64,000 nt of DNA, taken from UHGV virus genome UHGV-1882326. One strand, given 5' to 3'. Shown here piece after piece: positions 20,650-37,278 of the stretch. The stretch's first letter is position 1, and every line of letters starts with the position of its first letter. A program made the translations under genes and the position numbers. This DNA is from a virus. The notes under the pieces are model-generated. The model saw nothing but the letters and a program-made list of their open reading frames with translations. It had not been told where the DNA came from and did no database searches.

Positions 20650-20669
20650 AAAATTTAATCACCTACTTT

Positions 20670-21524
20670 TTAAGATGTTCTTTGCCAAATATAACAACAA
20701 AGATATGGCTGTACAGTTGAAATAGTTTGTGTTGTTAATGTTACATCTCCGTGTGTATGTCCTTGTCCTCCACCTGCACCTAATGTAGTTGTAATAGTAC
20801 CTTTGCTCCAATCATTAAACCAACCACCGTTATTATGAATTTGAAAACCATTATTAGCCGAAATTGGAGAAAACTCATTAGGTGCCGCAGAGCCATATTT
20901 TACTGCTATAATACTTGTATTGCCATCCATACCATGTTGATGGTCTGGAATTTCATTTATTGTTAATACATGATTTTGCGTTGTGTGTGCGTGAGTATAA
21001 TCATTACTATACACACCGCCCAGTTTTCCTGCTTGATTAAAGCTATCTTGATTAGTGTCAACGCCTACTAAAGTTCTTCCTTGTCCTATTAACAACCAAC
21101 TTCCACCAAAAAAAGTTGAAGGATTAGTAGCAACCAAAGAAAGATAAATTGAACCAACAGGGTAAACATCTAAAGCACTAATACCACCAGATTTGCTACT
21201 TCCACCACCGCTTATATACATATTACTTGCTTGATTTTGTGGGTATGTGACTTTTACAATATCATTTATCTTAAAGTTTGCGACAGAGTAACTAGGAACT
21301 CTGCTATATTCTTTATTATCTATAACAACATTATATGTACCATCAGAATTTAAACTTTTAATCAAACCAGTTTTAGTAATATCTCTAGGTGCTTTATTAA
21401 CTTCCTGTTTTGCAATAATTCTCATAGCTTCAAGTATTTCTTTATTTATATCCCATGTTTTAGCATCAAGGCTACTATTCCCTCGCTTAACATCGGTTCC
21501 TTTATTGTTGTATAAATTTTGCAT
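20670..21524 (-). CDS. Tail-collar-domain fiber/baseplate protein
   Basis: The sequence YPVGSIYLSLVATNPSTFFGGSWLLIGQGRTLVG resembles the phage tail collar / MdpB motif, and His-rich boxes follow. Confidence 0.45.
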   Translation of the reverse strand: MQNLYNNKGTDVKRGNSSLDAKTWDINKEILEAMRIIAKQEVNKAPRDITKTGLIKSLNSDGTYNVVIDNKEYSRVPSYSVANFKINDIVKVTYPQNQASNMYISGGGSSKSGGISALDVYPVGSIYLSLVATNPSTFFGGSWLLIGQGRTLVGVDTNQDSFNQAGKLGGVYSNDYTHAHTTQNHVLTINEIPDHQHGMDGNTSIIAVKYGSAAPNEFSPISANNGFQIHNNGGWFNDWSKGTITTTLGAGGGQGHTHGDVTLTTQTISTVQPYLCCYIWQRTS

Positions 21525-21581
21525 AATTCAATTCACTTCCTTTACCAAAACAAACAAAATCTTTATAGTAAAAGGAGAGAA

Positions 21582-24500
21582 TTAATCTCTCCTTCCACCC
21601 ATCTGTAATGCTCTGTTTTTTAAATTCTTTAATTCGTCAATAAATGATTGTGCGTTGGTAACATTTGGTAATGTAAGATTTTCAAAAGCGTAGTTATAAA
21701 TAGGTGCAGACTGTCCACCCATTTTTCCTACAATACTGTTTAACCATTGTGTAGGTGAGAATTTACCAAGTTGCATAAGATTCTCAGTCAAATGATTAGG
21801 AATAATACCGTCACCCTCATTAGACCTTGAACCAAGAACTCTTAATTCTCGACCTTTTTCACCAACCATAGATAAACCATAACCTTTTGTTGTACCGTTT
21901 GCATAAGCCCCCGGGCCATGTGAAGTATCATCTTCATACCAGTTATCACCACCAGACCCATGAGAATAACTAGGTTCTTTATCAGAATAATATTCATCTG
22001 GGTCAAGTTCGTCACCAAAATCTTCATCGTCATCATCATCGTAACTTTTATATCTTGTCTTAAGTGTACTCATTATTTCATTGTATCTATCTACATAATC
22101 TTGAAGATTGCCAAGACGTTTCTCCCAGTTTTCACCCTCTAAACTGATACCTAATACTTGTTCAGCAAGAAGTTTATTCTGTTCAGTTGTATAATTATCT
22201 GTAACATTTCCCCATTCATCTTTATACTTTTGCCAATACTTTATCTGTTCTTCAACTGAATTAATTGTAGCGTCACGAATATCTTCTAATCGTTTTATCT
22301 CTTTCTTGGTGTCTTGCTCTTTCTTATATTGTGTAAGAGCAGTTTTAGCTTCGTCTACAGCAGATTGGTCTGTTTCGTAAACAAAACCTTGTCCCTCTCT
22401 ATATATTCTTACTTTCTTTTGTTGTGCTTTTGCTAAAGCATCTAACTTTTCTTGTAGTTCAATTTCGTCATTTGTTGCATCGTTCTTTTCGTTTATTTTG
22501 TCAATCTCAGCATCGTACTGGTCTTGAATAGCTTGTTTTCTTTCGTTAAGTGCATCAATTTCTTTTTGCGCTAATGAAGCAACATAACTAAACGCTGTTT
22601 CCAGATTAGATTGTTGTTCCTCATACCAAGCCTTTTCTTCCTCCCACTCTTCTTTACGTGCTTTCTTACGCTTTTCTGCTTCTTGCTCTGCTTTTCTTGT
22701 ATTTTCTTCTTCAAGTTTATTACGTCCAGAATAAATCTCTTCTTCAATTTTCCAACGTTGCTCTGCGTATTTTTCTTCATTACTATAGAACTCTTTCATT
22801 AATTCTTCAAGTTCGTCATAGTATTCCTGTTCAGAAATCATATCCATAGCAAGTTGATGTTTTAAGAGGTTATAACGCTCAGTATAAGCCGCATCATGGG
22901 CTTTTGTCATACCGTCTAAGGCTTTCTCATGATACTTGTTATATTCATCCTCATACCCCTCTTTATCTTTGTAGTATTTATTTGTAAGTTCTTCAAGCTG
23001 TTCATAATACCATTTATCTGTAGCGGCATTATCTTTCATTGAAGCCTTTTGTTTATCTAAAGCAGCAAGTTCTTTTTCAAATGCTTCTTTATATGCTTTA
23101 GCGTCTGCTTTTGCTTGCTTTTCTTCATCTGAGGTTGAGGACTTTTTGGAACCACCACCTTTACCGCCTTTACTACCAGAAGTAGAAGGTTTAAATTGTA
23201 ATCCTTTTCTCAATTCCTCTAAAAGTTTTTGATTTTGTTGATTACGGTAAGCTTGAACTTGTGCGTCAAATCCTTCTGAGTAAGATTGAACACCAACACC
23301 GCTACTGCCTGTTCTAGCTTTTGGTGCGGCACCAGATACAGCATCTAAACTAGAAGCAAATTGTAAAATTCCTTGCGCTCCTTGTGCAAATTGGTTACCT
23401 GTTGTTATAGCTGTATTACCAATCGTTGTTAAATAAGGATTTGCTTGTGAACTTGCTGTTCCCACTTGTTGAATAGAAGTTCCTAAATTATCAGAACCTT
23501 GTTTCCCTGTTTCTGCGTTTGTGCCAACTTTTTGCTCACTTTCACTAAAAGTATCTAATCCTTGTGAACTAGAAATAGCAGAAATCCCTCTTTCAGTAAA
23601 GCTTTGCGCCATTGACATTAAAGAAGCATCATTAACAACTAATTGACCATTTACCATTTGTAAAGAATTAAGATATTCTGGGTTTAAAGATAATAAATCA
23701 GCCATTGTATCTATTGTAACACTACCTGTTTTATTATATTCGTCTGCTACTTCATGTAAGGTATTATAAGCGTCTTGAACGCCTTTTAATTCTGATGTAA
23801 GACTTTTAATAGCTTTTTCAAATTCTTCTGTTTGGGAAGCGGCTTCACCTGCATCTTCACCATATTGATTTACACCATCGGCGGCTTCTTTTGCTTTATC
23901 ACCATTATCTTGTAATTCAATTCCTAATGCTTTTGCAAAATCTGGGAATTGCGTAGCAACAACTTCGTCTAACGCTTCTTTAAACAACGGAATCTGTGAA
24001 TTATTTTCAAGCAACGCATTGTATACACTTTCAAAAGAACTAAGGCTATCATATTGAGTGTTTATAAAAGATTGTGTCTTTTTATCAACATCAACTGTTG
24101 CGTCAGCGGCTTCTCTTGTAAGTGTAGCAGTTTTATTATATTTATCCTCTAATTCAACAAGAGTATTACTTAAGAACGCTAAAGTTTGCTGATGCAATTT
24201 TGTTTGATTATCTTCTTGTTGCATTGCGGTAATAGTAGTGTTTAAATCCGCTATTAATTCTTTATAACCACCTGCCGCTTCATAAACACCTTCGCCCAAA
24301 CTCTTTGTATATTTATTATAAAACGCCTTAAAAGATTCACTGGATTCAGTATCATAAGTAAATTTTAAAGGAATGTAAAATGAAGTTCTATTTAACATAT
24401 CCTGTGTTGCTTTTTGTGCTTTCTGAATTTCAGCTTGATTTCTGTTCAAAAAATCTTGTGATTTTTCAGCATTTTCTTTACTAAGTAAATCTAAACCTTC

Positions 24501-26243
24501 TGCTCTTGTTCCGTTCAAATTTGATAGTGCTTCTTCTTCAATACCGTAAGCCTTAGCAAGTTTAGAAATTGTAGATTTTAACTTTTGTTTATTTTCATCT
24601 TCATCACCTGTAGCTTCTTTAGCATTAATATATTCAAGTCTTAAATTATAAAGATTTTTTCTTTCATCTTCAAAACTACTACCTGCTTGTTCTGCGGCTC
24701 TTCTTGCGTTTTCTTGTTGAGTATTATAATAACTATAAGCGGCTACAAGTCCAGTAACAACAAGTGATACTGCACCTAAACTTGCAGTTAATAAACTACC
24801 TGCACCTGCCATAGCCGTAAATCCTTGTGCTAAAGAACCTGTAGCGGCATAAGCATAATCAAATTTAGCAATCATATCTAAAACATTTGTAGATATTTTC
24901 GCTATCATTTCTGGTATTTTATGTCCGTTAAGAGTAATAAAAGCACCTGTAATAGCAGTAAGTACAGTGGGCATACCACCTAAATCATTAATAAGTTTTA
25001 ATACTTGTGTACCAAATTCTACAAGGCGTTTTACACTATCTGAGGAAATACCCTCTGTCCAAAACTTTTCTAATTCAGATGTGAACTGAGATACTTTACC
25101 TTGTATACTATCCAAATAACGTGCATTTTCTTTAAGTGCTGAACCTTGGGAATCTAAAGCTAATTTATAAGCTTCTGTAGCAGAATTAAGGTTTGTCATA
25201 ACCGCACTAAATACGGAAAATTGGTTCTTACCTGCAAGTGCCAAACCCAATGATTGTTTTTCAGCTTGTGACATTTCATCCCAACTAGATTTTAAATCTT
25301 GAAAGACTTGATAAGTGCTTTTCATTTCTCCTGTAGATTGGTCAAATAAATCTATAGATTTTGTAACACCTTGTACTTTAAAACTTAATTCTCCTGCTTC
25401 ATTAGCCGCTTTTGCTATATTATTTCCCACCGTGGTCAATCCTCTTGCCACTTGCACACTTCTTCCAGTAAGAATCTCCGTACCTGATGTAATTAATGCT
25501 ATAGATTCTTCAAAGTCATTGCCTAATACAGAAAGACCTGCACCTGCAACAGTAAGACCTTTTGCTAAATCATTAGTTCCGACAGCCATGTTATTAGCAA
25601 CCTCGTTGGTGGCATCTATAATATGCTGTGCATCTTGTGATGTCATATTAAACGCTTTCATTTGAGAGTTTACAAAACTTGCACTATCTCCTGCGGAAAT
25701 TGCAGTATCTGCAATATTTTGAAACATAGTTGCTACTTTTCCTAATTGTAAACTTTCTTGGTCTGAATAACCCATTTTCTTGAACTGGGTTCCTGCTTCT
25801 ATAAATTCAGTAGCACTTTTTCCTACTTCAAGACCCATTTCTCTTGCTGTACTTACAAAACTTTTCATTCCCTCGTCTGTTAAATCAGACACTTTCTTAT
25901 ATTCAGTAACAGCGGCATCTAATTCTCTAACAGCATCTACACCGTCCATTAACGATTGTCTTAACTCATTAATAACAAGTGTTACGCCACCAAACTTAGA
26001 TACTTTAGTAAATATATCACCAATACTTTGAAAAGTTTTTTCTGCGCTCGTACTGGTATCATCAAATCCCACTTTTAATCCTTTAAGCCCACTTAACGCA
26101 TCACTAAGTTTGCTTGTATCAACATCAATGCCAACTTTCATAGTTGCGTATTTTTGACTTATCTTATCTAATTGTGCTTGAATATTTTTTGCATCTAATA
26201 CTGCATTTACAAGTATTTGAAAATTACTACTATTCAATGCCAT
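21582..26243 (-). CDS. Tail tape measure protein
   Basis: 1553 aa with long coiled-coil K/E-rich central segments and Gly/Ala-rich TM-like segments, in the canonical position after the major tail protein. Confidence 0.8.
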   Translation of the reverse strand: MALNSSNFQILVNAVLDAKNIQAQLDKISQKYATMKVGIDVDTSKLSDALSGLKGLKVGFDDTSTSAEKTFQSIGDIFTKVSKFGGVTLVINELRQSLMDGVDAVRELDAAVTEYKKVSDLTDEGMKSFVSTAREMGLEVGKSATEFIEAGTQFKKMGYSDQESLQLGKVATMFQNIADTAISAGDSASFVNSQMKAFNMTSQDAQHIIDATNEVANNMAVGTNDLAKGLTVAGAGLSVLGNDFEESIALITSGTEILTGRSVQVARGLTTVGNNIAKAANEAGELSFKVQGVTKSIDLFDQSTGEMKSTYQVFQDLKSSWDEMSQAEKQSLGLALAGKNQFSVFSAVMTNLNSATEAYKLALDSQGSALKENARYLDSIQGKVSQFTSELEKFWTEGISSDSVKRLVEFGTQVLKLINDLGGMPTVLTAITGAFITLNGHKIPEMIAKISTNVLDMIAKFDYAYAATGSLAQGFTAMAGAGSLLTASLGAVSLVVTGLVAAYSYYNTQQENARRAAEQAGSSFEDERKNLYNLRLEYINAKEATGDEDENKQKLKSTISKLAKAYGIEEEALSNLNGTRAEGLDLLSKENAEKSQDFLNRNQAEIQKAQKATQDMLNRTSFYIPLKFTYDTESSESFKAFYNKYTKSLGEGVYEAAGGYKELIADLNTTITAMQQEDNQTKLHQQTLAFLSNTLVELEDKYNKTATLTREAADATVDVDKKTQSFINTQYDSLSSFESVYNALLENNSQIPLFKEALDEVVATQFPDFAKALGIELQDNGDKAKEAADGVNQYGEDAGEAASQTEEFEKAIKSLTSELKGVQDAYNTLHEVADEYNKTGSVTIDTMADLLSLNPEYLNSLQMVNGQLVVNDASLMSMAQSFTERGISAISSSQGLDTFSESEQKVGTNAETGKQGSDNLGTSIQQVGTASSQANPYLTTIGNTAITTGNQFAQGAQGILQFASSLDAVSGAAPKARTGSSGVGVQSYSEGFDAQVQAYRNQQNQKLLEELRKGLQFKPSTSGSKGGKGGGSKKSSTSDEEKQAKADAKAYKEAFEKELAALDKQKASMKDNAATDKWYYEQLEELTNKYYKDKEGYEDEYNKYHEKALDGMTKAHDAAYTERYNLLKHQLAMDMISEQEYYDELEELMKEFYSNEEKYAEQRWKIEEEIYSGRNKLEEENTRKAEQEAEKRKKARKEEWEEEKAWYEEQQSNLETAFSYVASLAQKEIDALNERKQAIQDQYDAEIDKINEKNDATNDEIELQEKLDALAKAQQKKVRIYREGQGFVYETDQSAVDEAKTALTQYKKEQDTKKEIKRLEDIRDATINSVEEQIKYWQKYKDEWGNVTDNYTTEQNKLLAEQVLGISLEGENWEKRLGNLQDYVDRYNEIMSTLKTRYKSYDDDDDEDFGDELDPDEYYSDKEPSYSHGSGGDNWYEDDTSHGPGAYANGTTKGYGLSMVGEKGRELRVLGSRSNEGDGIIPNHLTENLMQLGKFSPTQWLNSIVGKMGGQSAPIYNYAFENLTLPNVTNAQSFIDELKNLKNRALQMGGRRD

Positions 26244-26829
26244 TGTTTATGTACCTACCTTTCTTAGCATTTATATTTGGCTTCTTACCAAATCCCTTAC
26301 TTATTTCAGTAGGTTTAATCTGTGACCATGCTATTCCAATAGCATCTCCAATATCGTCATCATTTTTCACGCTTTTAGGTTTATCTAAATCATAAAACAA
26401 TTCCAACCCAAAAATATGATTGACTTTTTCTATAGTTTTCCATTTCATTACTGGACGTTTAGTTCCATTTCTAGTACCATCATAAACGCCCAAATCACTA
26501 CGCCATTTACTAGGCATAAGAAATTCTATTTTTACATTATGTACCGCACAAACACCTAATACAATTCCTTGTAACACTGATAATTGTTTTACTGTTTGTA
26601 CATTATTACCACATTCACCGCTTAAAATTGTATCTTCACAATAAATAAAAAACGGGGAATAAGTGTCCAATAGCGTGGATAACTCATTCCCCATATATAT
26701 ACAACGTTCTCTCCAAGCTATCTCTTGCTTCTGTTTCCAAACGCCAAATTTTATCAATTTACCATTTTTAAAAACTGAATATCCAGAACTTTTCGTTGAC
26801 ATATCCAGTCCAATTACAACATTTTCCAT
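26230..26829 (-). CDS. RuvC-like Holliday junction resolvase (RNase H fold)
   Basis: It has VVIGLDMSTKSSGYSVF (Asp motif 1), YCEDT, and DDIGDAIGIAWSQ (C-terminal Asp pair). It overlaps the tape-measure start by 14 nt. Confidence 0.55.
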   Translation of the reverse strand: MENVVIGLDMSTKSSGYSVFKNGKLIKFGVWKQKQEIAWRERCIYMGNELSTLLDTYSPFFIYCEDTILSGECGNNVQTVKQLSVLQGIVLGVCAVHNVKIEFLMPSKWRSDLGVYDGTRNGTKRPVMKWKTIEKVNHIFGLELFYDLDKPKSVKNDDDIGDAIGIAWSQIKPTEISKGFGKKPNINAKKGRYINNGIE

Positions 26830-26849
26830 ATAATCCCCTTTTCCAAATT

Positions 26850-27359
26850 TTACCAGAAAGAGGATATATTTTTACCTCTTCCTACACTTCTACATTGTAT
26901 TCCTTGTTTCTGCATACCTTCAATAAACCATTTCTTTAATTCACCTTTGTTTAACTGTTCAATCAACGGTGTCCAAGCATCTCTTGGTTTATTCCACCAA
27001 CCATATCCAAATAAATCACCACCAAGACCTTGATATATAATTCCAGTTAATTCATCTCTTACATCACCATAAGTAGTATATAAACTACCATGTTGGAACA
27101 TTTCTGGATTATAAGACATAAAAGTAGGGTCTTGGGATAAAATCCCAGACCCACCTTGTCTTGTTTTTTGTGATTTTGTTTGCCAACTTTCCAGAAATTC
27201 ATATGTTCTTTCATATTCTTCTGGTATATGTGCATATACAATCTGATTGATTAAATGCTTATAATTCACCAATATTTGTTGCATTACATATTCAACAGCT
27301 TTAGAAACTGGTTCATTGTACAAGGAATAAAACTCACCTGCATTTTTAGCATAAGCCAT
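26850..27359 (-). CDS. Hypothetical (tail assembly region)
   Basis: 169 aa. Confidence 0.4.
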   Translation of the reverse strand: MAYAKNAGEFYSLYNEPVSKAVEYVMQQILVNYKHLINQIVYAHIPEEYERTYEFLESWQTKSQKTRQGGSGILSQDPTFMSYNPEMFQHGSLYTTYGDVRDELTGIIYQGLGGDLFGYGWWNKPRDAWTPLIEQLNKGELKKWFIEGMQKQGIQCRSVGRGKNISSFW

Positions 27360-27368
27360 TTTACCTTA

Positions 27369-27818
27369 TCACTTCTTTCCAAATGCTTCTACTAACTTTT
27401 TACTGTCTGCTAACATGTCCTCAATCTGTTTATTGTTAGGCATTTTCTTAGCATATTTATCTAAAGTCTTATTCAATTGTTCTAAAAATTTATTCACGTT
27501 GGTTCTGATTGATAATTCATCTTCTACATAATCATCAATCTCACTAACGTTAAATATATTATAATCCACAACGTCAATAATTCCAGATTTAACAAGCATA
27601 TCATAATCTTTAACAATTCCCTCTGGAATATCAGTCATTAATTTAATAAGCATTGTATTTTTAACAACATTTCTTTCAACAGCATTTGAACATTTTAACA
27701 TATTATTTCCAATAAGTTCAACCTGTTCTGGGGTTAAATACTGTTTTACCGTATATTTTTCACCTTTTTCGTCCTCAGTATAAGGAATTGTTACCACTTT
27801 TTCTTTTAATTCAACCAT
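27369..27818 (-). CDS. Hypothetical, possible tail assembly chaperone
   Basis: The likely start is MVELKEK, which follows AAAGGA. The track extends it to 27881. Confidence 0.4.
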   Translation of the reverse strand: MVELKEKVVTIPYTEDEKGEKYTVKQYLTPEQVELIGNNMLKCSNAVERNVVKNTMLIKLMTDIPEGIVKDYDMLVKSGIIDVVDYNIFNVSEIDDYVEDELSIRTNVNKFLEQLNKTLDKYAKKMPNNKQIEDMLADSKKLVEAFGKK

Positions 27819-27944
27819 TTCATTCCGTCCTTTCGTTTCGTTCCATAATCTATGTACAAAGGGTGCAACGAAACGTAACACCCTTTTTAAAATTTACCCT
27901 ACCAATTTATCATGTAAACCATTCAAATCAGTGTTACCCTATTT

Positions 27945-28214
27945 CTACTTATCTGTAACCACTTTCTTTGCAACTTGGTCTACCCATGTGGAAGCCATTC
28001 CAGACACAATACCAATGGCAATAGCTGTCATAATATCATCAGCAGGAAAATCAACCATATATCTATAACCTAAAACACCTGCAATTCCACCAATCAGTCC
28101 AACAATCGGCAGAATCTTATTATTATCTAACTTAGTATAATTTTTAACAAACTGCCCTGCAAGATAAGCAATAACTACAATTACAGGTACACTTACAATT
28201 CCGAAATCTGGCAT
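27945..28214 (-). CDS. Small 2-3 TM protein, holin-like (XhlB / phage_holin_4_1-like)
   Basis: 89 aa with TM helices and a charged C-terminus. Confidence 0.45.
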   Translation of the reverse strand: MPDFGIVSVPVIVVIAYLAGQFVKNYTKLDNNKILPIVGLIGGIAGVLGYRYMVDFPADDIMTAIAIGIVSGMASTWVDQVAKKVVTDK

Positions 28215-28229
28215 AATATCAAATCCTTT

Positions 28230-28610
28230 CTATTTGAATCCATATTTAGTTGCTAATATATATCCTACAAAAGATATTGCAATAATTATTGTAGGGAAAT
28301 TTTTCTTTATGTATTCCATAATATTAAAATTAGATTCGTCTTTAATTTTATTAAAATCTGTCTTAATATCGTTTACTTGAAGTTTAACGTCTGAAACGTC
28401 ACTTTGTAAAGAAATCATTGTAATTTTAATATCTTGAATAGTTTCATTCAATGCTTTATTAGTTTTTACAACTTCCTCAGATAAATTCTGAATAAATTTA
28501 TGACTTTCTTGAAGTCTGGTAATATCTTGTGTATGTTCATCTACTTTTAACTTAACTTCTCTTAAATCCTCTTTAATTTCATGTGCTGTCATATCTTCCA
28601 CAAATCTCAC
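28230..28610 (-). CDS. XhlA-like protein (N-terminal coiled coil, C-terminal TM anchor)
   Basis: 126 aa with heptad-rich N-terminal two-thirds and a terminal hydrophobic helix, an architecture like PBSX XhlA. Confidence 0.4.
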   Translation of the reverse strand: MRFVEDMTAHEIKEDLREVKLKVDEHTQDITRLQESHKFIQNLSEEVVKTNKALNETIQDIKITMISLQSDVSDVKLQVNDIKTDFNKIKDESNFNIMEYIKKNFPTIIIAISFVGYILATKYGFK

Positions 28611-28668
28611 CTACTTTACCATAAAATACCCTTCTTTCTTTTTTATCCGTCCATTCATTTCATTCCAA

Positions 28669-29043
28669 TTAATCACCACAAAGGTTAGCAAATACAATAC
28701 CAGTAATTGCTCTCAAATCAGCCTTATTCAAAGTTCCAATATAGTTCTTAAACCTTGACTTATCCACAGCACGAATTTGTTCAGCACAAGCAACGCTATC
28801 ATCTACAAGAAATTTATTTTTTTCTTTAGATAATGTATAGTGTGTAAGCAAATCTTCTCTTTTAACTTTAGAAGTTAAAGGTACTATGATTATGGTAGGG
28901 CTATAAAAATTTCCAGTATCATTCTGTAAAATTAATACTGGTCTTACTCCGCCTTGTTCTGAACCTTGGGTATTCCTTAAATCAGCATAATAAACTTCCC
29001 CTCTTTTGAATGTTCTTGCGTTATTGTTTATTGTTGTAAACAT
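28669..29043 (-). CDS. mazF: MazF/PemK/EndoA-family endoribonuclease toxin
   Basis: The sequence GEVYYADL...GSEQGGVRPVLILQNDTGNFYSPTIIIVPLTS...VDDSVACAEQIRAVDKSRF aligns closely with B. subtilis EndoA (NdoA) and E. coli MazF. Confidence 0.8.
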   Translation of the reverse strand: MFTTINNNARTFKRGEVYYADLRNTQGSEQGGVRPVLILQNDTGNFYSPTIIIVPLTSKVKREDLLTHYTLSKEKNKFLVDDSVACAEQIRAVDKSRFKNYIGTLNKADLRAITGIVFANLCGD

Positions 29044-29094
29044 ATTCAGTTCTCCTTATGTACTATATTTTTATATAACTTTCATATAATATAT

Positions 29095-29130
29095 ATAGCA
29101 CTTTTTATTTACAAAGTCAATACTTTTATT
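29095..29130 (-). promoter_or_regulatory. Promoter (gtATTGACTTTG-17-TATATA) upstream of the MazF-like gene
   Basis: The minus strand reads aagtaTTGACTttgtaaataaaaagtgcTATATA. Confidence 0.4.
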
Positions 29131-29473
29131 TACCATAACCCTTATTTTTATTAATACCATACCCATTTTTTGTCTTATATAAAGTAACATATTTAGGTAC
29201 AAAATTAAAAGGATTTTTCAATGTAATCACCATATTGTTCTCAACTTCAATATACAATTCGCCTTTCTTTTCAAAACGAACCCTTGAAGCCTTTTCTGGA
29301 ACAATATATTCACTTTTTAACCTACAAGTATCTTGACTTGGTAATGGTTTCCAACAATCTGATATATTGCACCAACGAACAAAAGGACAAATATTACCAT
29401 TTTGTCTTTTACATAAAACCCTATTTCTATTATCTACTTTACCAATATATGAATCTGGACACAAAATAATCAC
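29126..29473 (-). CDS. Cys-rich hypothetical protein immediately upstream of the MazF-like gene
   Basis: 115 aa with 7 Cys, not similar to MazE or RHH antitoxins. Confidence 0.4.
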   Translation of the reverse strand: MIILCPDSYIGKVDNRNRVLCKRQNGNICPFVRWCNISDCWKPLPSQDTCRLKSEYIVPEKASRVRFEKKGELYIEVENNMVITLKNPFNFVPKYVTLYKTKNGYGINKNKGYGK

Positions 29474-29555
29474 TTCCTTTACAACAAAATTTAAAATATG
29501 TAAAATGCGTAGAGCATATCACCCTACGCATATAGATACAAACTAGTAACAGAGA

Positions 29556-30602
29556 TTAGCCAACAGTTACATTAGCATAACCTTCTACTGCTGTATTCTT
29601 AGTGAGAACAGCATGGATAGTAGTTGTACCAGTTGCTACACCCTCTACTTCACCAGTTGCATCATCCACTTTAGCAGTACCAGCAGCACCACTTGTAAAA
29701 GTAACAGCAGTTGGGTCTACTAACTTAGGTAAAGCATTTCTGATAAGAGCATAAACCTTAATAGTTTCTTTTTCACTTACTTGTAAATCAATATCAGCCG
29801 GAGTTAAAGCCAATGCGTAAGCGTCATTCTCCCACTGAGCAGTAGACAGAATTTCCTTAATAGTACCATAGATAGCTTCATCACTACAGCTAGAGGTTTC
29901 AGCAGATGCCAGAGCAGAACCATTAAGAGGCGTATTAGCCGCACCAGTCATACTCATAGAGATTTCCTGTGAGCCGTTTAACATTAAACGTGGAATGTCA
30001 ATCTGAACCTCGCCAACTTTAGTAGTAGACGCTTCATTTGGATTAGTGCTACTACCTGCAAACAGAGTACCAGTCATTACAGCATGAACGGTAGCAGGAA
30101 TAAAGTTAGCACCTACTGTCAGCACTCTCATAGAATCGTTGTTTACTACATACTTAACGCAATAAACATCACCAGACATAGCACCTGCAACAGTGATAAT
30201 CTTATTGTTGAAAGTACCTTTAACCCATGTAGAGCCATTAGGCTTTTTGTACCAACCAATAGTACCAAAGTTACCAAATGCTACAGGAGTACCACTTACG
30301 GTAATCTGTCCTGCGTCTGTTACAGTAACTTCCTCAGAAGTTAAAGCACTACCACCAATCGCAATATCAGAACCAATGTTCTTTGCGATAAATTCAAGAC
30401 GGAACATTACATCAGTAAGAGTTATGTCCATTGTAGAAGAATGTGCATATTTGCCATACAGTTTTGCACCTTGTCCACCACGAATATCTTCAAGAGATAC
30501 ATCAAAACTAAAAGTAGAATCTGTTAAAGTTTTTGCAGTAGCAAACAGTTCATCGCCTACAAAAAGGTCAACATTTGCTACACCAGCTAAAAAAGCATCC
30601 AT
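29556..30602 (-). CDS. Major tail protein with a C-terminal Ig-like (Big_2-type) domain
   Basis: 348 aa with a TFTSGAAGTAKVDDATGEVEGVATGTTTIHAV Ig-like C-terminus. It has an AAAGGAG ribosome-binding site and a strong leader. Confidence 0.6.
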   Translation of the reverse strand: MDAFLAGVANVDLFVGDELFATAKTLTDSTFSFDVSLEDIRGGQGAKLYGKYAHSSTMDITLTDVMFRLEFIAKNIGSDIAIGGSALTSEEVTVTDAGQITVSGTPVAFGNFGTIGWYKKPNGSTWVKGTFNNKIITVAGAMSGDVYCVKYVVNNDSMRVLTVGANFIPATVHAVMTGTLFAGSSTNPNEASTTKVGEVQIDIPRLMLNGSQEISMSMTGAANTPLNGSALASAETSSCSDEAIYGTIKEILSTAQWENDAYALALTPADIDLQVSEKETIKVYALIRNALPKLVDPTAVTFTSGAAGTAKVDDATGEVEGVATGTTTIHAVLTKNTAVEGYANVTVG

Positions 30603-30654
30603 TTATATTACTCCTTTCATATTTCAAACATTTTTTATATTTCAGACATTTGTG

Positions 30655-30690
30655 AACTACCCATCAGCTAAAGCTAATGGGATTTCTGAT
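30655..30690 (-). repeat. Hairpin motif copy A (CCCATTAGCTTTAGCTGATGGG, transcript sense) in the leader of the major tail protein
   Basis: The plus strand reads cccatcagctaaagctaatggg. The motif sits 60 nt upstream of the major-tail-protein ATG. Confidence 0.5.
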
Positions 30691-31490
30691 TATATTTTTT
30701 TAAATCCTTGTCCAATATTCTTTTTATTTACAAAAGCATCTGCATATTTGCCTTTCTTATTCTTATATGCAAAATGCTCTATAGGCTTTTTAAACTTTCC
30801 ACCATTTGCTTCAAAATTCTTGTTCACAACGTAATCAATCTGTTCAACAACAGCATTAAACAAAGACGTAAAACTATAAAAAGTCATTTCAAGCAAATCT
30901 TTCTTTAACATGCCGTTATGTGCTGAAACAATAGATATTTTTCTTTCTAATGTTATAGGTTCTTTATTCTTATTCACCAAACTATAATATTCATCAACAG
31001 CTTTCTTATAATCTGGATTTAAATCTCTTTCATCTTCATAATCATAGATATTCTGATATTGTATAATTTGAATTATATTATCAAAATCCTTATAATCTAT
31101 AATCACGTCATTTATTTCAAGAATAAATTTACCTTTTTCATTAATCTTGATTTTGAACTGTTCTTCAATTTTATTAAGTCCAAAACATAATTCTATAATT
31201 CTGACAAATTGCCAATATCTCATAGAATGTTTTTCAACTTTTCCAAACAAATCTTGTCCTAAAACCATTTGCAAAAGAAATTGTAAATAAGAACTCTGAA
31301 TGATTTCTATATCTTCAAATGTGTTTTTATCTATTGTAAGCACGTTATAACAGTTTACAAAATCGTTAGCTTCTTTTAACTTAACTGGATATAATAATAT
31401 TACTTGTTTATGTCTAGTAACATAAGGGATAGGTTTGTCCATTTCAATATAGTTCTGATAAGGTGTTATATCAAACTTCATTAAACACAC
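30690..31490 (-). CDS. Hypothetical head-tail/tail protein
   Basis: The probable start is at 31481, where TAATG overlaps the upstream stop. Confidence 0.45.
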   Translation of the reverse strand: MCLMKFDITPYQNYIEMDKPIPYVTRHKQVILLYPVKLKEANDFVNCYNVLTIDKNTFEDIEIIQSSYLQFLLQMVLGQDLFGKVEKHSMRYWQFVRIIELCFGLNKIEEQFKIKINEKGKFILEINDVIIDYKDFDNIIQIIQYQNIYDYEDERDLNPDYKKAVDEYYSLVNKNKEPITLERKISIVSAHNGMLKKDLLEMTFYSFTSLFNAVVEQIDYVVNKNFEANGGKFKKPIEHFAYKNKKGKYADAFVNKKNIGQGFKKI

Positions 31491-32044
31491 CCCTCACTTA
31501 TACTACCAATCTGAACAGCCATAAATATACTTGCACCATTGTAGTTTCTTGTATTATTTAAAGCCGCCCTAGACCTACAATACTGTGATAGTTCTGCATT
31601 AAACTGAAATTGTCCAACACCGTCCATAGCATAAGAACCATTAAGTGTTTTCATAATTTCAGTTTCCATAACATCAGCCCTATTACAAGGAATACCATTA
31701 TATTCCACAATAGCAATTTTGTCCCCAAATAAAACATCAAATTCATACACAACAGTACATAAATAAGGGTTTATTGGATAACTGTCATACTTAAAACATT
31801 TTAATATGGTTGTTGCGTCATATTGCATGTTTTCAACTAAAGGATTTAAAAATATCCTATATTTTTGTTGTTGGTCTTGATTTTTATAAATCATTCCCAT
31901 TTTTTCCTCGAATGTAAGATTAGGTTTACTTAAACAATCATAAGTGCCATACTTAAGAAGTTTAAATATATTTTCATTATTTTGAGCCAATGTCATTATA
32001 ATTTTATAAGGGACATATGGCAAATTTGCAAAATTATTAAACAT
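31481..32044 (-). CDS. Hypothetical head-tail protein
   Basis: 187 aa. Confidence 0.45.
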   Translation of the reverse strand: MFNNFANLPYVPYKIIMTLAQNNENIFKLLKYGTYDCLSKPNLTFEEKMGMIYKNQDQQQKYRIFLNPLVENMQYDATTILKCFKYDSYPINPYLCTVVYEFDVLFGDKIAIVEYNGIPCNRADVMETEIMKTLNGSYAMDGVGQFQFNAELSQYCRSRAALNNTRNYNGASIFMAVQIGSISEGCV

Positions 32045-32060
32045 TTACACATACTCCTTT

Positions 32061-33338
32061 CTAAAACGCAGACACTAGTTTGATTTCTTTTTGTAATGTT
32101 AAATCATCAGCTTCTATTGTTAAAATCAATACATCAGACGTAGGTTTTATACAAGTTAAAGCATATGTATTATCTGATTTAGACAAAGTATAATATCCTT
32201 GTTTAACGCCAGTCGCAGTTACGACAATATCAACATTCTGTTTAACACCATTAATTATCAACATTGGTTCAAAAATTTGAACATTACCTTGACGCACTTG
32301 CGTAAAAACAGGGGTTATAACAATCTCTTTTTTCTCAGTCACAGTTTCTACTACGGTACATATTGCTTCGTCTTGTACTGTCTTATACTGACTGGTAGCC
32401 ACATGAAATTCGATTTTAGACCCTATTTCAACATCTGCTGAAATTTGATAATTGCCATTTTCGTCTATTGTTGCACTTTCAGATGGTACAGCCCACCATT
32501 GCAAAGGAATGGACAGTTGCTCATTATCCCTCATTACAATAGCTTGTAACCTACCACTACCACCTTGTACCACTTCAAATTCGCCATCTTGTATCATAAT
32601 CGAAAAAGTATGCTCATAACGATTAGCCACATTATTTTCAATATCATCAGACGGTTGAATTTCATCAAGATATAAATCTATATAAAGAATAGTTGTATCT
32701 TGGTCTATATAACTATTCTGCATATAATTGTTGTACCCAGTAATCTTAAAAGGTCTACCATTAAAAATAAACCTTTTATTTTGTTTCCATTTGATTGTTT
32801 CTTTATTTCCTTGTACAATCATTACAACATGATTATCTGGGATAACAATATCTTCCATGTACTTAGGTGAAGGTGATGTAGGTGTATAGTCCAAAATACA
32901 AGGTATTGATATAATATCACCAGTATTTTCGTCTACATATTTTGCAAGATTATTACAACGTCTGACAACAACAGCTTCGGAAACACTGTTATAGTTGTCT
33001 GTAAATGTTGTAATCCAATAGTTATCATCAAATTGATATAATAATCCTCTAGTATTTCTATCAGAAGAACCATTTTCTTGAATAATATCCTTGAAAATTA
33101 ACTTTCTGAAATCATCACCGTTTTTACGTCCTGTGCTTGTTTCCTCTATGACATGATTTATATAAACCGTTATAGGATTAAACTCAAAAGAACCTATTTC
33201 AGTTTCTTCGCCCACATCGTATTGCACAGTAGTATTATCCCATTGAGAATCGACCAATGCTTGTATATCATTTCTATACTTACTGTTAGGGGTCATAGCC
33301 AGACCCTCTAGGTAAGCACCATAATAAGTTAATGCCAT
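32061..33338 (-). CDS. Structural protein, hypothetical (425 aa)
   Basis: It lies between the head and tail modules and could be a neck or sheath-like protein. No motif was recognised. Confidence 0.4.
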   Translation of the reverse strand: MALTYYGAYLEGLAMTPNSKYRNDIQALVDSQWDNTTVQYDVGEETEIGSFEFNPITVYINHVIEETSTGRKNGDDFRKLIFKDIIQENGSSDRNTRGLLYQFDDNYWITTFTDNYNSVSEAVVVRRCNNLAKYVDENTGDIISIPCILDYTPTSPSPKYMEDIVIPDNHVVMIVQGNKETIKWKQNKRFIFNGRPFKITGYNNYMQNSYIDQDTTILYIDLYLDEIQPSDDIENNVANRYEHTFSIMIQDGEFEVVQGGSGRLQAIVMRDNEQLSIPLQWWAVPSESATIDENGNYQISADVEIGSKIEFHVATSQYKTVQDEAICTVVETVTEKKEIVITPVFTQVRQGNVQIFEPMLIINGVKQNVDIVVTATGVKQGYYTLSKSDNTYALTCIKPTSDVLILTIEADDLTLQKEIKLVSAF

Positions 33339-33353
33339 GGCTATGTCCTCCTT

Positions 33354-33590
33354 TTATTTTACAAAATCTATTGCTTGAAAAATAGAAGCCTTTACCATAT
33401 AATGTGTAGCTTCTGTTCCTAATCTGTTTAAACCTCTTATGATAATAATAACTTGTTCATTTATCTCGCTTTTCTTTACACCGTTTAACCATACTAATAA
33501 GGTTTCTAAGTATTTACAATAATCTTCTTTTGAAGTTTCATAAATACATAAAGCCTTATATAATTTGCCAACAATTAAACTCTTATTCAT
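33354..33590 (-). CDS. Hypothetical small protein
   Basis: 78 aa. Confidence 0.35.
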   Translation of the reverse strand: MNKSLIVGKLYKALCIYETSKEDYCKYLETLLVWLNGVKKSEINEQVIIIIRGLNRLGTEATHYMVKASIFQAIDFVK

Positions 33591-34036
33591 TAAAACACCA
33601 ACTGCAAGTCTTTTATTTTGTCTATATTATCATTCTGATAATCCAGACTATCTTGCTTTATCTTTTCTCTCATTCTATCCAGATATTCAGATTTAGCATC
33701 TAAGTTGTTTGCTTCTGCATAATGTTTAAAGTCTGTATTGGTAAGATGTAAATTAAATTGAGTAACGTCATTAATATTGGTTTCAAACCATGTATACACG
33801 AACCAATCTGCTAATATACTTTGCTCTTTCAAAGTTAATTTATTAGCAAATTCTCTAGTTTCTGTACTATAATCAAGAGGTTGTAAACATTCAACAAATT
33901 TAGGTATAGATTTTATTAACATTCCGTCAGTATATTTTTGAAAATCTTCTGTACTTTTTTCATAAAGTTTATCTAATTTATAGTCACGTATAATAATTAA
34001 TGCTAAGTCTTTTATAGTATCAAAGGAAGTAGCCAT
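33590..34036 (-). CDS. Hypothetical head-tail protein
   Basis: 148 aa. Its stop overlaps the next start. Confidence 0.45.
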   Translation of the reverse strand: MATSFDTIKDLALIIIRDYKLDKLYEKSTEDFQKYTDGMLIKSIPKFVECLQPLDYSTETREFANKLTLKEQSILADWFVYTWFETNINDVTQFNLHLTNTDFKHYAEANNLDAKSEYLDRMREKIKQDSLDYQNDNIDKIKDLQLVF

Positions 34037-34060
34037 ATTGTTTCACCTCCTTTTATTTAA

Positions 34061-34723
34061 TTACTCAGCTTCAATTCCCACGAAATTAATTCCAGTAAGT
34101 TCACCAAGTTTTACCAGAACATTTGCGTCTACATCAATACCTTGAACACGCTTATTCTTAATCATTTCGATAATAGTTTCCTTCTGACCTCTTGGAGCCA
34201 TATTATAAAGGTCAATGATTTTGTTAGCATCATTCTTAAAAATATTTTCAATAACTTCTGGTGGTAACATTTTGTTATATTCAGAAGTTTTTCTTAATTT
34301 TCTAACAACTTCTTCGTCAACAATATAGAAATATCCCTCGTTAGCAAATCTCTGATTATGCTGTACAATATCTTTTAAATCACCAAAAGGAATATCTATA
34401 ATCTGTCCAAAATCAGTAAAAGTATAAATATTTCCCTGTCCTTTACCTTGTGTTGCAAGATTTAATTCACCTTGACACATACTGACTACAGGAACCTCTG
34501 TTTCAAGATAATTGTAAAATCTATCGTTACCATACGGTACAGATTGAGTAACAGCTTGCGACTTAACTTTGCCCTCTAAGTCATTGAGTCTACCCATAAG
34601 TGCTTCAAACTGCTCTGTAGTAAGTGTTACCGTATTTGTAGATTTTTCTTCTACGTTTTCTGTTACAGCTTCCTCAACAATAGGTGTTGTAGCAGTCTTT
34701 TTTGCTGTTTTTGCGGTTGCCAT
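34061..34723 (-). CDS. Hypothetical structural protein
   Basis: 220 aa. Confidence 0.45.
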   Translation of the reverse strand: MATAKTAKKTATTPIVEEAVTENVEEKSTNTVTLTTEQFEALMGRLNDLEGKVKSQAVTQSVPYGNDRFYNYLETEVPVVSMCQGELNLATQGKGQGNIYTFTDFGQIIDIPFGDLKDIVQHNQRFANEGYFYIVDEEVVRKLRKTSEYNKMLPPEVIENIFKNDANKIIDLYNMAPRGQKETIIEMIKNKRVQGIDVDANVLVKLGELTGINFVGIEAE

Positions 34724-34824
34724 ATCATTTAAATCCTTTCATTCATTTTATTCATTAAAAAAGAAATGCCAAGAAAGCATAAGACCTCCTTGGCATTTTT
34801 ATTATATTTTTGCACAAGACAAAA

Positions 34825-36018
34825 TCATTGCTTGTTCTTAACATCTAATACAATTTCTGTGTGATTTTTTCCTTGAAGTAAAGAATCTATTGCTTCTATA
34901 AGTTGTTGTTTTGTAGGAATTTCAAAATTTCCTTTTACTCGTAAAATTTTATATCCTTTACTTCTAACGAAATAATCTCTTCTTATATCTCTTTTTTTAT
35001 TTACTTCTAAATTATGCCAATATTCTCCATCGTATTCAATATCTATTTTTTCACCTTGTATTTCTAATAAGCAATCAAAAACCGCTCTTTCTAAAACAAA
35101 ACCAAACGTAACTTTATAATTCGGATAAGTTTCTTTTACAAGCTCACAAAGTTTCTTTTCTGGCTTAGAAGAACGAACATTACCATTTTCAGCCATAGAT
35201 TCTATTACTTTTTGTCTTATCTCTGGAACTTGCAAAATATAAGGTTTACCATACTTTTTTAAAACAGTTTGTACTGCTTTATTCCTTGTTTCTAAAGATT
35301 CAAAAGCACTTTTTCTACCATATTTTTTTAAATTAGTTAATAATGCTCTTTCTCTTATTTCTGAAACTTGCATAGCGTTTGGTTTACCATATTTTTCAAT
35401 CATGGTTTTTTGTGCTTTTTCTTTTACTTCTGGTATTTGCATTGTATAAGGCTTCCCATATTTATTCAAATTATTTTGAACTATTTTTTCTTTTATTTCA
35501 GAAGAAGCAAAAACATTAGAAACGCCATATTTTTCTAAATTAGTTTGCTCAATTCTTTCTTTTATTTCGGGAACTTGTAATACACAAGGCTTTCCATATT
35601 TTTTTAAATTAGTCTTTTCTATTTTCTTTTGAATATCTCTATTTTGTGCAGGAAAATCAACTCCATATTTTTTTCTGTTTGTGCTTTTTATTTTTTCTTG
35701 TACACCTTCTATCCCCATAGGAGTTGTTGTACCATATCTTTCTAAGAAAGTATTTTCTCTTTTTATTTGCGAACATTTTTTACAATATAACTTACCATCT
35801 TTTTCAGTGTTTTTTAAATACCCAACATAAGTAATATTTAACTTTTTCCCACAAATATCACAAAATGCTATTATTCTTTTTTGAGAAGAAGGAGGTAAAT
35901 CTTTAAGTTTAACTTTAAATTTATCAAATCTTTTGGTATATTTATACCCTTTTTCAATATAATAGTTAAAATTTCTTCCTGCCCAAGTCATTTCAATTTC
36001 TTGGTTTTCGTCTATCAT
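34825..36018 (-). CDS. Free-standing homing-endonuclease-like protein: Zn finger, about 8 NUMOD3-like repeats, and a C-terminal Vsr/DUF559-type nuclease domain
   Basis: CDICGKK...CKKC forms a Zn finger. The repeat QEKIKSTNRKKYG / KERIEQTNLEKYG / KEKIVQNNLNKYG... recurs about 8 times. The C-terminus reads DIEYDGEYWH...RDIRRDYFVRSKGYKILRV. Confidence 0.55.
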   Translation of the reverse strand: MIDENQEIEMTWAGRNFNYYIEKGYKYTKRFDKFKVKLKDLPPSSQKRIIAFCDICGKKLNITYVGYLKNTEKDGKLYCKKCSQIKRENTFLERYGTTTPMGIEGVQEKIKSTNRKKYGVDFPAQNRDIQKKIEKTNLKKYGKPCVLQVPEIKERIEQTNLEKYGVSNVFASSEIKEKIVQNNLNKYGKPYTMQIPEVKEKAQKTMIEKYGKPNAMQVSEIRERALLTNLKKYGRKSAFESLETRNKAVQTVLKKYGKPYILQVPEIRQKVIESMAENGNVRSSKPEKKLCELVKETYPNYKVTFGFVLERAVFDCLLEIQGEKIDIEYDGEYWHNLEVNKKRDIRRDYFVRSKGYKILRVKGNFEIPTKQQLIEAIDSLLQGKNHTEIVLDVKNKQ

Positions 36019-36064
36019 AAAGTTTACCTCCTACTTGACAATCATTTAGACAAATTTTATTAAT

Positions 36065-36115
36065 CATATATCTTTATTATAAATTATACCATAATAATCA
36101 TAATAAAGATATATG
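36065..36115 (-). promoter_or_regulatory. 15-bp perfect inverted repeat with an extended -10 (TGGTATAAT) in its loop, upstream of the endonuclease gene
   Basis: The arms atatatctttattat (36065-36079) and ataataaagatatat (36101-36115) pair perfectly. The -10 lies at 36083-36091 on the minus strand. Confidence 0.4.
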
Positions 36116-36130
36116 AATTTTATACAAAAA

Positions 36131-37240
36131 TTAATCTAATTTTATCATTGCGGCTGTTGCATTTGATACGAACTCACAAGCCCAACCCTTATTAATAGTG
36201 GTGTTAGATGTAAGATTTGCATTGTCATAGTAATCATTTCCGTTGCTTAACTGGACTCCCTCAAGTACCATCTTAACTAATTTATCTGTGGATGGAGATA
36301 CAACATAAATCTTCTTATCATCCAGAGCCAGAGAATAATTAGTATAATCACCAGTAGCAACCTGTGGCAGTACCAGAATATCGTAATCAAAGAAATTCTT
36401 GATAAGCTGAATACTCTGGGAGTTACTATCTGTTACGATTCTGTAAACATTAGCGGCATTTGGAATAATCTTAGATAATGCAAGTGCAGTACCTACAATT
36501 ACAGCCTTATCCCCCTGATTGTAAGCGGTTACAGTCTGGCATAAACCTAACAGAGTATCCTGTGTATAACCAGTCTTAACTAAAGCTGTTGGATAAGTAG
36601 CGGCAGTTAAACCTGCGTTCAGTGCATTGTAAGCATCCAGAGAGAAAGCAGTTTCCATAGAACGAATTGCAGTTCTTACAAACTCAGCTAAATTCTCCTT
36701 ACGTGCCAGAACCTTATACAGAGAAGCATAAACAGTAATATTATGGTTTACTGGCATAAGAGTTCTATTTGCACTAAACTGCTTCTGACGAATAGTAGTT
36801 CTCTGACCATGTGCGCCTGTAGAAACAGTCATTAATGCTCTTGGCTTAATCTCAAACTGTGCAGAGTCTCCCCAACCTACATTACGAACCTCGGTGTACA
36901 GACCAATGGAACGAATGATAGTTTCTGGTAACACTGCTTGAATAAGCATATCAACAACAGCAAAAGCCGCCCAACGTATCATTGGATTTGCTACTAAATG
37001 TGTAGGTTGAATATCATTCGGCAGAGTACAACCTGCAAATCTCTGTACTTCACCTAAGAAAGAATTGTTAATCTTATCTTCCTTTTCACTTAAAGATACA
37101 GTATTATCAAAATCACCTAAGTCCTTCTTATTAACCTTGGACATATAATGAAAATAATAATCTCTAAATCTATCTACAAACTTTAAAGTGTTCTCGTTAC
37201 CATTAGAGAACTTGATAATGGATAAATCCTTAATAGCCAT
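36131..37240 (-). CDS. Major capsid protein (putative)
   Basis: 369 aa, by position after the protease/scaffold and decoration genes. No motif was verified. Confidence 0.55.
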   Translation of the reverse strand: MAIKDLSIIKFSNGNENTLKFVDRFRDYYFHYMSKVNKKDLGDFDNTVSLSEKEDKINNSFLGEVQRFAGCTLPNDIQPTHLVANPMIRWAAFAVVDMLIQAVLPETIIRSIGLYTEVRNVGWGDSAQFEIKPRALMTVSTGAHGQRTTIRQKQFSANRTLMPVNHNITVYASLYKVLARKENLAEFVRTAIRSMETAFSLDAYNALNAGLTAATYPTALVKTGYTQDTLLGLCQTVTAYNQGDKAVIVGTALALSKIIPNAANVYRIVTDSNSQSIQLIKNFFDYDILVLPQVATGDYTNYSLALDDKKIYVVSPSTDKLVKMVLEGVQLSNGNDYYDNANLTSNTTINKGWACEFVSNATAAMIKLD

Positions 37241-37278
37241 AAGTCTAAAACTCCTTCCTAATCTATAATCAAATTAAA

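Follow-up and report, generated by a model that had tools for sequence, protein, structure and literature searches.

What does a large phage gain from carrying a bacterial suicide RNase, and how does it live with that enzyme when no recognisable antidote is encoded beside it? Both questions are raised by virus genome UHGV-1882326, of which a stretch of 64,000 nucleotides (hereafter the window) was analysed. Between its tail tube and tape measure genes lies a gene (28669..29043, minus strand), here called mazF, for a 124-residue protein of the MazF/EndoA endoribonuclease family. Our preferred reading, which we hold at even confidence, is that this is an mRNA interferase which a virulent phage itself deploys and encodes beside its main holin genes. 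An initial annotation made from the sequence had described the block at 27945-29473 as an antitoxin-less toxin cassette of four genes; all four open reading frames (ORFs) are present at these positions on the minus strand, and several of the other statements made about them are revised below.

The MazF protein and the search for an antitoxin

The 124-residue protein scores 99 bits with the PemK_toxin profile (PF02452; cut-off 23.1), the match spanning positions 1-101 of the 109 in the profile. It also matches phrog_1936 ('MazF-like growth inhibitor') with an E value of 1.3e-28. Searches of PDB sequences with phmmer returned S. aureus MazF (E 1.6e-26) and B. subtilis EndoA (~1e-22). A BLASTP alignment with EndoA (48% identity over 94 residues) pairs R34 with R25 and T57 with T48, the EndoA residues that we take, from its structure with RNA, to be catalytic. 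The RNA-groove motifs GSEQGGVRP and EQIR are kept, R34 and T57 are invariant in all nine of the phage sub-lineages compared, and the motifs GSEQGG(V/I)RP and EQ(I/V)R are retained across deep divergence. Profile, PDB and EndoA searches thus agree with the family originally assigned, with the catalytic Arg and Thr aligned, and from the identity to solved EndoA an SH3-like barrel fold is very likely. The gene is preceded by the ribosome-binding site AAGGAGAA, 7 nt upstream of its ATG, and the protein has a predicted isoelectric point (pI) of 9.2.

No canonical antitoxin gene was found. The 82-nt spacer upstream of mazF holds no ORF of at least 20 amino acids (aa) that would suit a MazE, in line with the initial annotation, and the neighbouring genes gave no antitoxin-family match in Pfam, PHROGs or NCBIfam. 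An RNA antitoxin was sought as well, with no Rfam match at E<=1, no ToxI-like repeat array and no meaningful tandem repeats nearby. By its sequence, then, the mazF product is an intact MazF/EndoA-family endoribonuclease that lacks a canonical MazE.

Conservation of the locus and candidate regulators

DNA and protein searches tie the region to phages of Enterocloster (CB457P1/2, CB473P1-3 and PMBT24), with genomes of about 100 kb each. The source is probably a PMBT24-like siphovirus of gut Lachnospiraceae, likewise of ~100 kb and virulent; PMBT24 is described as a virulent siphovirus (PMC11035940). Every gene in 21.5-54.5 kb of the window is carried by the minus strand, and along the direction of transcription the locus and its surroundings read as follows, with the endolysin gene placed last.

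29556..30602, minus strand: tail tube (major tail) protein, 348 aa, SPbeta YomU-like, with a C-terminal Big_2 (phrog_2729, phrog_341); upstream boundary
29495..29531, minus strand: intrinsic-terminator-like hairpin directly after the tube gene, with an 11-bp stem and a 5-nt loop followed by the U-rich UUUUACAUAUUUU (fold of 29474..29560, z = -2.1)
29126..29473, minus strand: Cys-rich basic protein (Cys115), 115 aa, pI 9.5, 6 Cys; a core gene of the lineage, always upstream of mazF where mazF is present
29092..29120, minus strand: sigma-A-type promoter-like element TTGACT-17-TGC-TATATA, score 10/13
28669..29043, minus strand: mazF, endoribonuclease of 124 aa without a canonical antitoxin gene (PF02452, phrog_1936, PDB matches, EndoA alignment)
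28230..28610, minus strand: acidic coiled-coil protein (CC126), 126 aa, with one C-terminal transmembrane helix; XhlA-like in architecture only
27945..28214, minus strand: holin, 89 aa, Phage_holin_5_2 (Hol44 / A500-like; PF16079, phrog_1129)
27858..27886, minus strand: hairpin after the holin gene, 9 + 3 bp, without a U tract (fold of 27840..27950, z = -1.9); doubtful as a terminator
26230..27881, minus strand: tail-chaperone-like protein of 170 aa (p170, probable start M22), a 169-aa protein (p169) and a RuvC-like protein of 199 aa; downstream boundary, syntenic in all relatives
21582..26243, minus strand: tape measure protein, 1553 aa, downstream of the RuvC-like gene
6132..7052, minus strand: endolysin with NlpC/P60 and choline-binding repeats (Pfam, phrog_7854), homologous to the PMBT24 lysin

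The gene order of PMBT24 is that of the window with one gene added. Its Table S2 (PMC11035940) lists ORF50 as major tail protein, ORF53 as 'mRNA interferase' (PemK/MazF), ORF54 as 'macoilin family protein', ORF55 as holin (the sole holin annotated), ORF60 as tape measure protein and ORF77 as lysin. The solo MazF is a conserved feature of a known phage group, already annotated in PMBT24.

IMG/VR was scanned with the window tube protein, which gave 18 loci, and with a tube-protein alignment, which gave 72, the two sets overlapping. The 75 loci analysed are the 72 of the wider scan and three added relatives, and their ORFs were classified by iteratively built family hidden Markov models. Gene order is kept in the 18 close IMG/VR loci, one ENA contig and the six cultured Enterocloster phages, all close relatives having the genes for the Cys-rich protein, a protein named Zn148 (in the Enterocloster clade only), MazF, the coiled-coil protein, the holin, p170, p169, RuvC and the tape measure protein. 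MazF is 87-100% identical to that of the window within the window clade and 52-55% in the Enterocloster clade. The cassette therefore does recur in related clostridial phages between the tail tube and tape measure genes, as the initial annotation had proposed to check.

Its parts do not travel as one unit. Among the 75 loci the Cys-rich gene occurs in 52, the coiled-coil gene in 34 and MazF in 32. All 32 MazF loci have the Cys-rich gene (20 of them with both the coiled-coil and holin genes, eight with the coiled-coil gene only and four with neither), 20 have the Cys-rich gene without MazF, 23 have neither gene, and none has MazF without the Cys-rich gene. The absence of mazF from the MazF-less loci was confirmed by tblastn within 8 kb on both strands; locus L067 does carry the gene. 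Six MazF-less loci carry a CC126 homologue, and there the Cys-rich stop codon overlaps or abuts the coiled-coil start. What had been taken for an inserted moron of four genes is thus a variable gene (mazF, in 32 of the 52 loci with the Cys-rich gene) among others that also occur without it; only mazF is accessory. Because the Cys-rich and coiled-coil genes occur without MazF, we regard them as core genes of the lineage and not as dedicated antitoxins.

The association of mazF with this site is an old one. MazF is found in the same interval even in sub-lineages with tube proteins that are just 33-46% identical, and the identity matrices of MazF and tube protein are roughly congruent (A/B 52-57% vs 66-68%; C/D 72% vs 82%; H/K 59% vs 54%). 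In a neighbour-joining tree the phage MazFs fall outside the bacterial EndoA cluster and are not nested separately within it. Five independent pairs give ratios of nonsynonymous to synonymous divergence (dN/dS) of 0.11-0.19, values close to those of neighbouring genes and indicative of purifying selection. At the same time, an allele with a 1-nt deletion that truncates the protein at 79 aa is present in at least three independent samples with flanking genes intact, and because such frameshift alleles circulate the gene is dispensable. We conclude that mazF is an old, selectively maintained yet dispensable accessory gene of the phage lineage. These alleles, together with the several sub-lineages without mazF, would also suit a remnant that is decaying, or has no catalytic relevance, and is kept through synteny. 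The low dN/dS, similar to that of neighbouring essential genes, and the retention of the catalytic Arg and Thr and both RNA-groove motifs make such a remnant extremely unlikely. The frameshift itself (L096 4001..4240; L097 871..1110; L098 846..1085) is the loss of a G in AAAGAAAAAAAT, which leaves a run of ten A residues and a stop at codon 80; the A10 homopolymer could be hypermutable.

If no MazE is present, a neighbour might serve in its place: the Cys-rich protein, Zn148 in the Enterocloster clade, or the acidic coiled-coil protein would form a non-canonical toxin-antitoxin pair with MazF and keep it inactive until a trigger such as holin firing or membrane depolarisation, so coupling RNA cleavage to the timing of lysis. 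The Cys-rich gene stands upstream of mazF in 32 of 32 MazF-bearing loci, its stop codon overlaps or abuts the mazF start in sub-lineages C, D/E, H and K, and in the distant relative L024 a gene for a coiled-coil transmembrane protein abuts the mazF start. CC126 is acidic (pI 5.6), as is usual for antitoxins. Small CxxC...Cx4C proteins overlap the mazF start at unrelated phage MazF loci, and AimX and YosL, non-MazE peptides of SPbeta-like phages, bind MazF (PMC10769878). The strict co-variation of toxin and neighbour expected of a type II MazEF pair is nevertheless missing, since 20 loci with a Cys-rich family member and six with CC126 lack mazF within 8 kb on either strand. Cys115 is moreover basic, like MazF itself; the window clade has the promoter-bearing 82-nt spacer between the two genes; and by hhalign there is no homology between the Cys-rich and CxxC families (probability 0.1%) or between the L024 coiled-coil protein and CC126 (probability 4%). 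A pair of this kind is in our view unlikely. The evidence argues against a dedicated antitoxin role for the Cys-rich or the coiled-coil protein, and it is the translational coupling that keeps the idea alive as a minority possibility.

The Cys-rich protein had been credited with seven Cys; we count six, five of them invariant in the family. It gave no match in Pfam, PHROG, NCBIfam or PDB, its family comprises 152 clusters of small stand-alone proteins, and its AlphaFold2 (AF2) model, with a predicted local distance difference test score (pLDDT) of 59.8, was too poor for a fold search. Descent from a common ancestor with the small CxxC proteins upstream of other phage MazFs was considered for Cys115, and likewise for CC126 with the coiled-coil transmembrane protein adjoining mazF in L024; the hhalign probabilities given above rule out both.

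Several other small proteins were seen next to phage mazF genes. In the Enterocloster clade the additional gene encodes Zn148, a 148-aa protein with a C-terminal CxxC...CxxC zinc ribbon (L001 14697..15143, minus strand; L002 5499..5945, plus strand), and lies between the consensus promoter and mazF, which it directly precedes; it belongs to no Pfam or PHROG family, and tblastn found no homologue in the window at E<=1. A protein of 57-73 aa with the pattern H-x-C-x2-C...F-C-x4-C-V-R overlaps the mazF start in L148, L161, L163, L165, L171 and L181 (mazF at about 3000), and an acidic protein of 100-113 aa overlaps the mazF stop in L123-L135, L141, L143, L145, L151 and L155. Both kinds of protein lie outside Pfam and are not MazE-like, and they are candidates for unrecognised antitoxin families.

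Transcription, split lysis genes and the role of MazF

The initial annotation gave mazF a promoter of its own, and a plausible element is indeed present at 29120..29092. Taken alone it is unremarkable, as 71 sites in the window score as well, and a generic promoter scan performed at chance level (30 found vs 29.4 expected). It gains credibility because the Enterocloster clade has a better consensus at the same position, namely TTGACT or TTGACA, a 17-nt spacer and TGA-TATAAT. In PMBT24 the element upstream of mazF is TTGACT-17-TGA-TATAAT (TTGACT-N17-TGATATAAT), listed as promoter #73 with a PhagePromoter score of 1.000 in Table S3 (PMC11035940), and in the CB473 phages a perfect terminator and then TTGACA-17-TGA-TATAAT precede the mazF unit. 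The spacer upstream of mazF is ~85% identical between the window and L005, while synonymous divergence (dS) is 0.41. The terminator-like hairpin after the tube gene was missed by the generic scan, and RNA folding gave no convincing terminator after the holin gene. An unstructured spacer of 58 nt separates mazF from the coiled-coil gene, which is followed after 15 nt by the holin gene. In two clades, therefore, mazF is probably joined with the coiled-coil and holin genes in one unit that has a promoter of its own. Five other sub-lineages lack such a promoter for mazF and show translational coupling of the gene to the Cys-rich gene, with gaps between -11 and +2 nt or an overlap.

The best consensus promoters of the window flank the strand switch at ~54.5-54.9 kb (54561, minus strand; 54887, plus strand), one of them a perfect TTGACA-17-TGA-TATAAT. 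Ahead of the endolysin gene, at 7133 (minus strand), lies TTGACT-17-TGT-TATTAT, which resembles in style the element upstream of mazF.

A separately transcribed unit is also what one would look for in a moron expressed from a prophage or plasmid-prophage, where MazF would act as an addiction, abortive-infection or superinfection-exclusion module for the lysogen. The promoter-like element and the terminator-promoter arrangement of the CB473 phages are compatible with this, as are the XerD-like recombinase encoded by PMBT24 and the MazF/PemK morons found near the lysis module in temperate S. aureus phages (PMC6507118). However, the cultured relative PMBT24 is virulent, and no integrase, repressor or other lysogeny gene occurs among the window ORFs scanned, which include NrdD/NrdG, methyltransferases, HNH endonucleases, TnpB-like and DDE transposases, and terminase and portal genes. 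A search with the tube-protein alignment of one genome per species (185,579 species) found no isolate prophage of the lineage and only three contigs from metagenome-assembled genomes, and there is no antitoxin to make carriage by a lysogen safe. We consider a prophage moron decidedly improbable, and the abortive-infection and superinfection-exclusion functions offered in the initial annotation are weakened by the virulence of PMBT24 and the lack of isolate prophages.

Downstream of mazF, the holin-like protein of the initial annotation is indeed a holin, of family PF16079 (54.9 bits, cut-off 29.2; phrog_1129 E 6e-13; at least two hydrophobic segments) and not of the holin_4_1 family that had been suggested. 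Its PMBT24 homologue is ORF55. It had been regarded as part of a second holin module; no other family-recognised holin occurs in the window, and it is also the only one annotated in PMBT24. The endolysin gene lies ~21 kb away, downstream along transcription, and a classical adjacent lysis cassette is absent; PMBT24 is split likewise. With no other family-recognised holin in the window and no other holin annotated in PMBT24, the holin gene next to mazF most likely encodes the phage's principal holin, the lysis genes being split, and mazF would thus probably lie directly upstream of the main holin pair.

The other member of this pair, CC126, had been called a coiled-coil, membrane-anchored XhlA-like protein. 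The architecture stands, with an N-terminal coiled coil, a single C-terminal transmembrane helix and a holin gene 15 nt downstream; membership of the XhlA family (PF10779) does not. Residues 7-100 yield coiled-coil profile noise and the transmembrane segment spans ~105-123. PF10779 was not listed for CC126, so that any match would exceed E 0.36, and it is absent from the 25 most-matched families of 12 CC126-family members scanned at E<=10. Among 5.8 billion proteins there were 11 homologues, none with XhlA. Pfam scans and homologue labels together rule out CC126 as an XhlA homologue. Translation of CC126 probably begins at the GTG at 28601, which would make the protein 123 aa long.

Besides the holin and CC126, the only small membrane ORFs in the whole window are two of 62 and 63 aa (5657..5845 and 5913..6104, minus strand). 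They lie directly downstream of the endolysin gene and are extremely hydrophobic; neither matches a family in Pfam or PHROG, and no counterpart is annotated beside the PMBT24 lysin. Additional genes of holin or antiholin type are one possibility, spurious ORFs another.

How might an RNase encoded here serve a virulent phage? EndoA and S. aureus MazF cleave at U^ACAU. During lytic infection the phage would make MazF without a dedicated antidote, and MazF dimers would cut single-stranded RNA at a short motif, plausibly this same one. Cleavage would lower the translation of host, competitor and defence messages, and since lysis of the infected cell is by then a settled matter, the phage might tolerate the toxicity.

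Several observations weigh against this proposal. UACAU is not depleted on the phage sense strand (64 observed vs 52 expected from a Markov model or 71 from composition), and if it is the motif, the phage's own messages would be cut as well. Predicted sigma-A-type promoters are spread over the whole structural region of PMBT24, and the promoter therefore gives no clue to when mazF is expressed. In five sub-lineages the Cys-rich gene and mazF are translationally coupled, and other phage MazFs have conserved non-Pfam neighbours; both observations make a non-canonical inhibitor possible. Finally, the AF2 model of MazF from an 11-sequence alignment is poor (pLDDT 53), with an order of secondary structures compatible with an SH3-like barrel, so that the evidence for the fold rests on identity to solved structures.

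Self-immunity by avoidance of UACAU was considered separately and is rejected, since this pentamer is not depleted. The most depleted sense-strand pentamers in 10487..54484 are GCTGG, GAGAC, GCTGC, CCAGG, TCAGG, GGACC and CCAGC (0-4 observed vs 8-27 expected), and these look like restriction-site avoidance (CCWGG, GCWGC, GGWCC, GAGAC).

The distribution of UACAU also bears on whether MazF might be an RNA-processing enzyme like T4 RegB, cutting the phage's own polycistronic transcripts between genes and so tuning how the tail and lysis genes are expressed. Over 44 kb there are six intergenic UACAU sites, of which three fall in the mazF locus (29502, 29062 and 27916), and the one at 29062 sits 3 nt upstream of the mazF Shine-Dalgarno sequence, which we treat as a curiosity and not as evidence. 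Six intergenic sites against 4.7 expected (z = 0.6) are no enrichment over these 44 kb, however, 58 sites lie inside coding regions, and the UACAU specificity is itself assumed. We think RNA processing very unlikely.

A bolder possibility joins the two themes of regulation and lysis: the Cys-rich family or the coiled-coil protein would be a new kind of MazF regulator, and mazF with the coiled-coil and holin genes an RNase-coupled lysis switch in large virulent gut phages. This we rate as rather improbable. If it were true, several antitoxin families that accompany phage MazFs would have gone unrecognised (the CxxC...Cx4C minis and the ~110-aa acidic proteins). Should simple host shut-off prove to be the answer, the outcome would be a useful but incremental annotation.

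The surrounding genome and known systems

Some features of the structural region are unrelated to mazF. The gene for a RuvC-like Holliday-junction resolvase (phrog_827; 26230..26829, minus strand) lies between the tail-chaperone-like and tape measure genes, an odd site for a recombination nuclease. It overlaps the tape measure start by 14 nt, is kept in 34 related loci and carries the label 'RuvC endonuclease' in PMBT24. The tape measure gene is intact in the window, and is interrupted by inserted genes in several relatives (L005 10104..15421; L026, L027, L030, L035 and L041); a split tape measure gene in CB457P1 was reported in the PMBT24 paper (PMC11035940). In L005 an IS605 OrfB/TnpB gene comes after the tape measure gene. 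The phage genome in the window contains two TnpB-like genes (phrog_506; 41479..42603 and 48722..49831) and one DDE transposase gene (8476..9858), all on the minus strand, and one of the TnpB genes is directly upstream of a portal-like fragment at 40403..41362, which suggests insertions that interrupt structural genes.

In the close relatives L005 and L096 the precomputed Pfam labels of structural genes are the SPbeta families YonB, YomX_C, YomW, YomV_2nd and YomU_Tube, the tube-protein homologue in L005 being labelled PF27173 YomU_Tube. These clostridial phages therefore share an SPbeta-type virion module.

Antitoxin-less MazF homologues are common in gut phages. We found 100 phage records with solo MazF homologues, including lytic Lactobacillus and Psychrobacillus phages without an annotated antitoxin, and the 'MazF-like growth inhibitor' is reported to be widespread among gut viruses (PMC12291355). 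The literature searched held no functional characterisation of the phage genes in PHROG 1936. The present lineage is a tractable one, with PMBT24 in culture on Enterocloster bolteae, natural loss-of-function alleles and sister lineages without mazF, and it opens the questions of how a suicide RNase of bacteria benefits a lytic phage and whether MazF inhibitors of non-MazE descent are in use among phages.

Among known systems, the closest in protein family are Bacillus EndoA/EndoAI (YdcE/YdcD) and S. aureus MazEF. The window toxin belongs to the same family PF02452, is 45-48% identical and shares the catalytic Arg/Thr and the RNA-groove motifs. Unlike the chromosomal systems, it has no MazE gene, is not part of a two-gene autoregulated operon and is encoded in a phage structural and lysis region, followed by membrane-protein genes. 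The PHROG 1936 genes of other phages (PMBT24 ORF53, Lactobacillus phage P1 gp51, Psychrobacillus phage Perkons ORF37 and the pemK/mazF morons of S. aureus phages) are like the window gene in encoding a phage MazF without an annotated MazE-type antitoxin. Those of P1 and Perkons are located among early or replication genes, in contrast to the position beside the holin seen here, and staphylococcal phage pemK/mazF, also unlike the window gene, is an accessory gene of the lysogenic-conversion type.

In the PBSX XhlA-XhlB-XlyA cassette, as in the window, the gene directly upstream of that for a small holin with multiple transmembrane segments encodes a coiled-coil protein anchored in the membrane by its C-terminus. 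The window differs in lacking XhlA homology, in its holin family (PF16079), in having the endolysin gene 21 kb away and in the RNase gene that precedes the pair. The phi3T/SPbeta arbitrium phages (AimX, YosL, phi3T_93) likewise combine SPbeta-like structural genes with MazF biology, and their small non-MazE proteins AimX and YosL can neutralise MazF (PMC10769878). There the MazF is that of the host and the inhibitors are phage-encoded, whereas here the phage encodes the MazF.

The window gene finally invites comparison with an early gene of a lytic phage. T4 RegB is a sequence-specific endoribonuclease with a RelE/YoeB-like toxin fold, a specificity for GGAG and a dependence on ribosomal protein S1. 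Although its fold family is different, the likeness is one of functional analogy, in that both would be antitoxin-less RNases of toxin ancestry, deployed by a phage during lytic growth.

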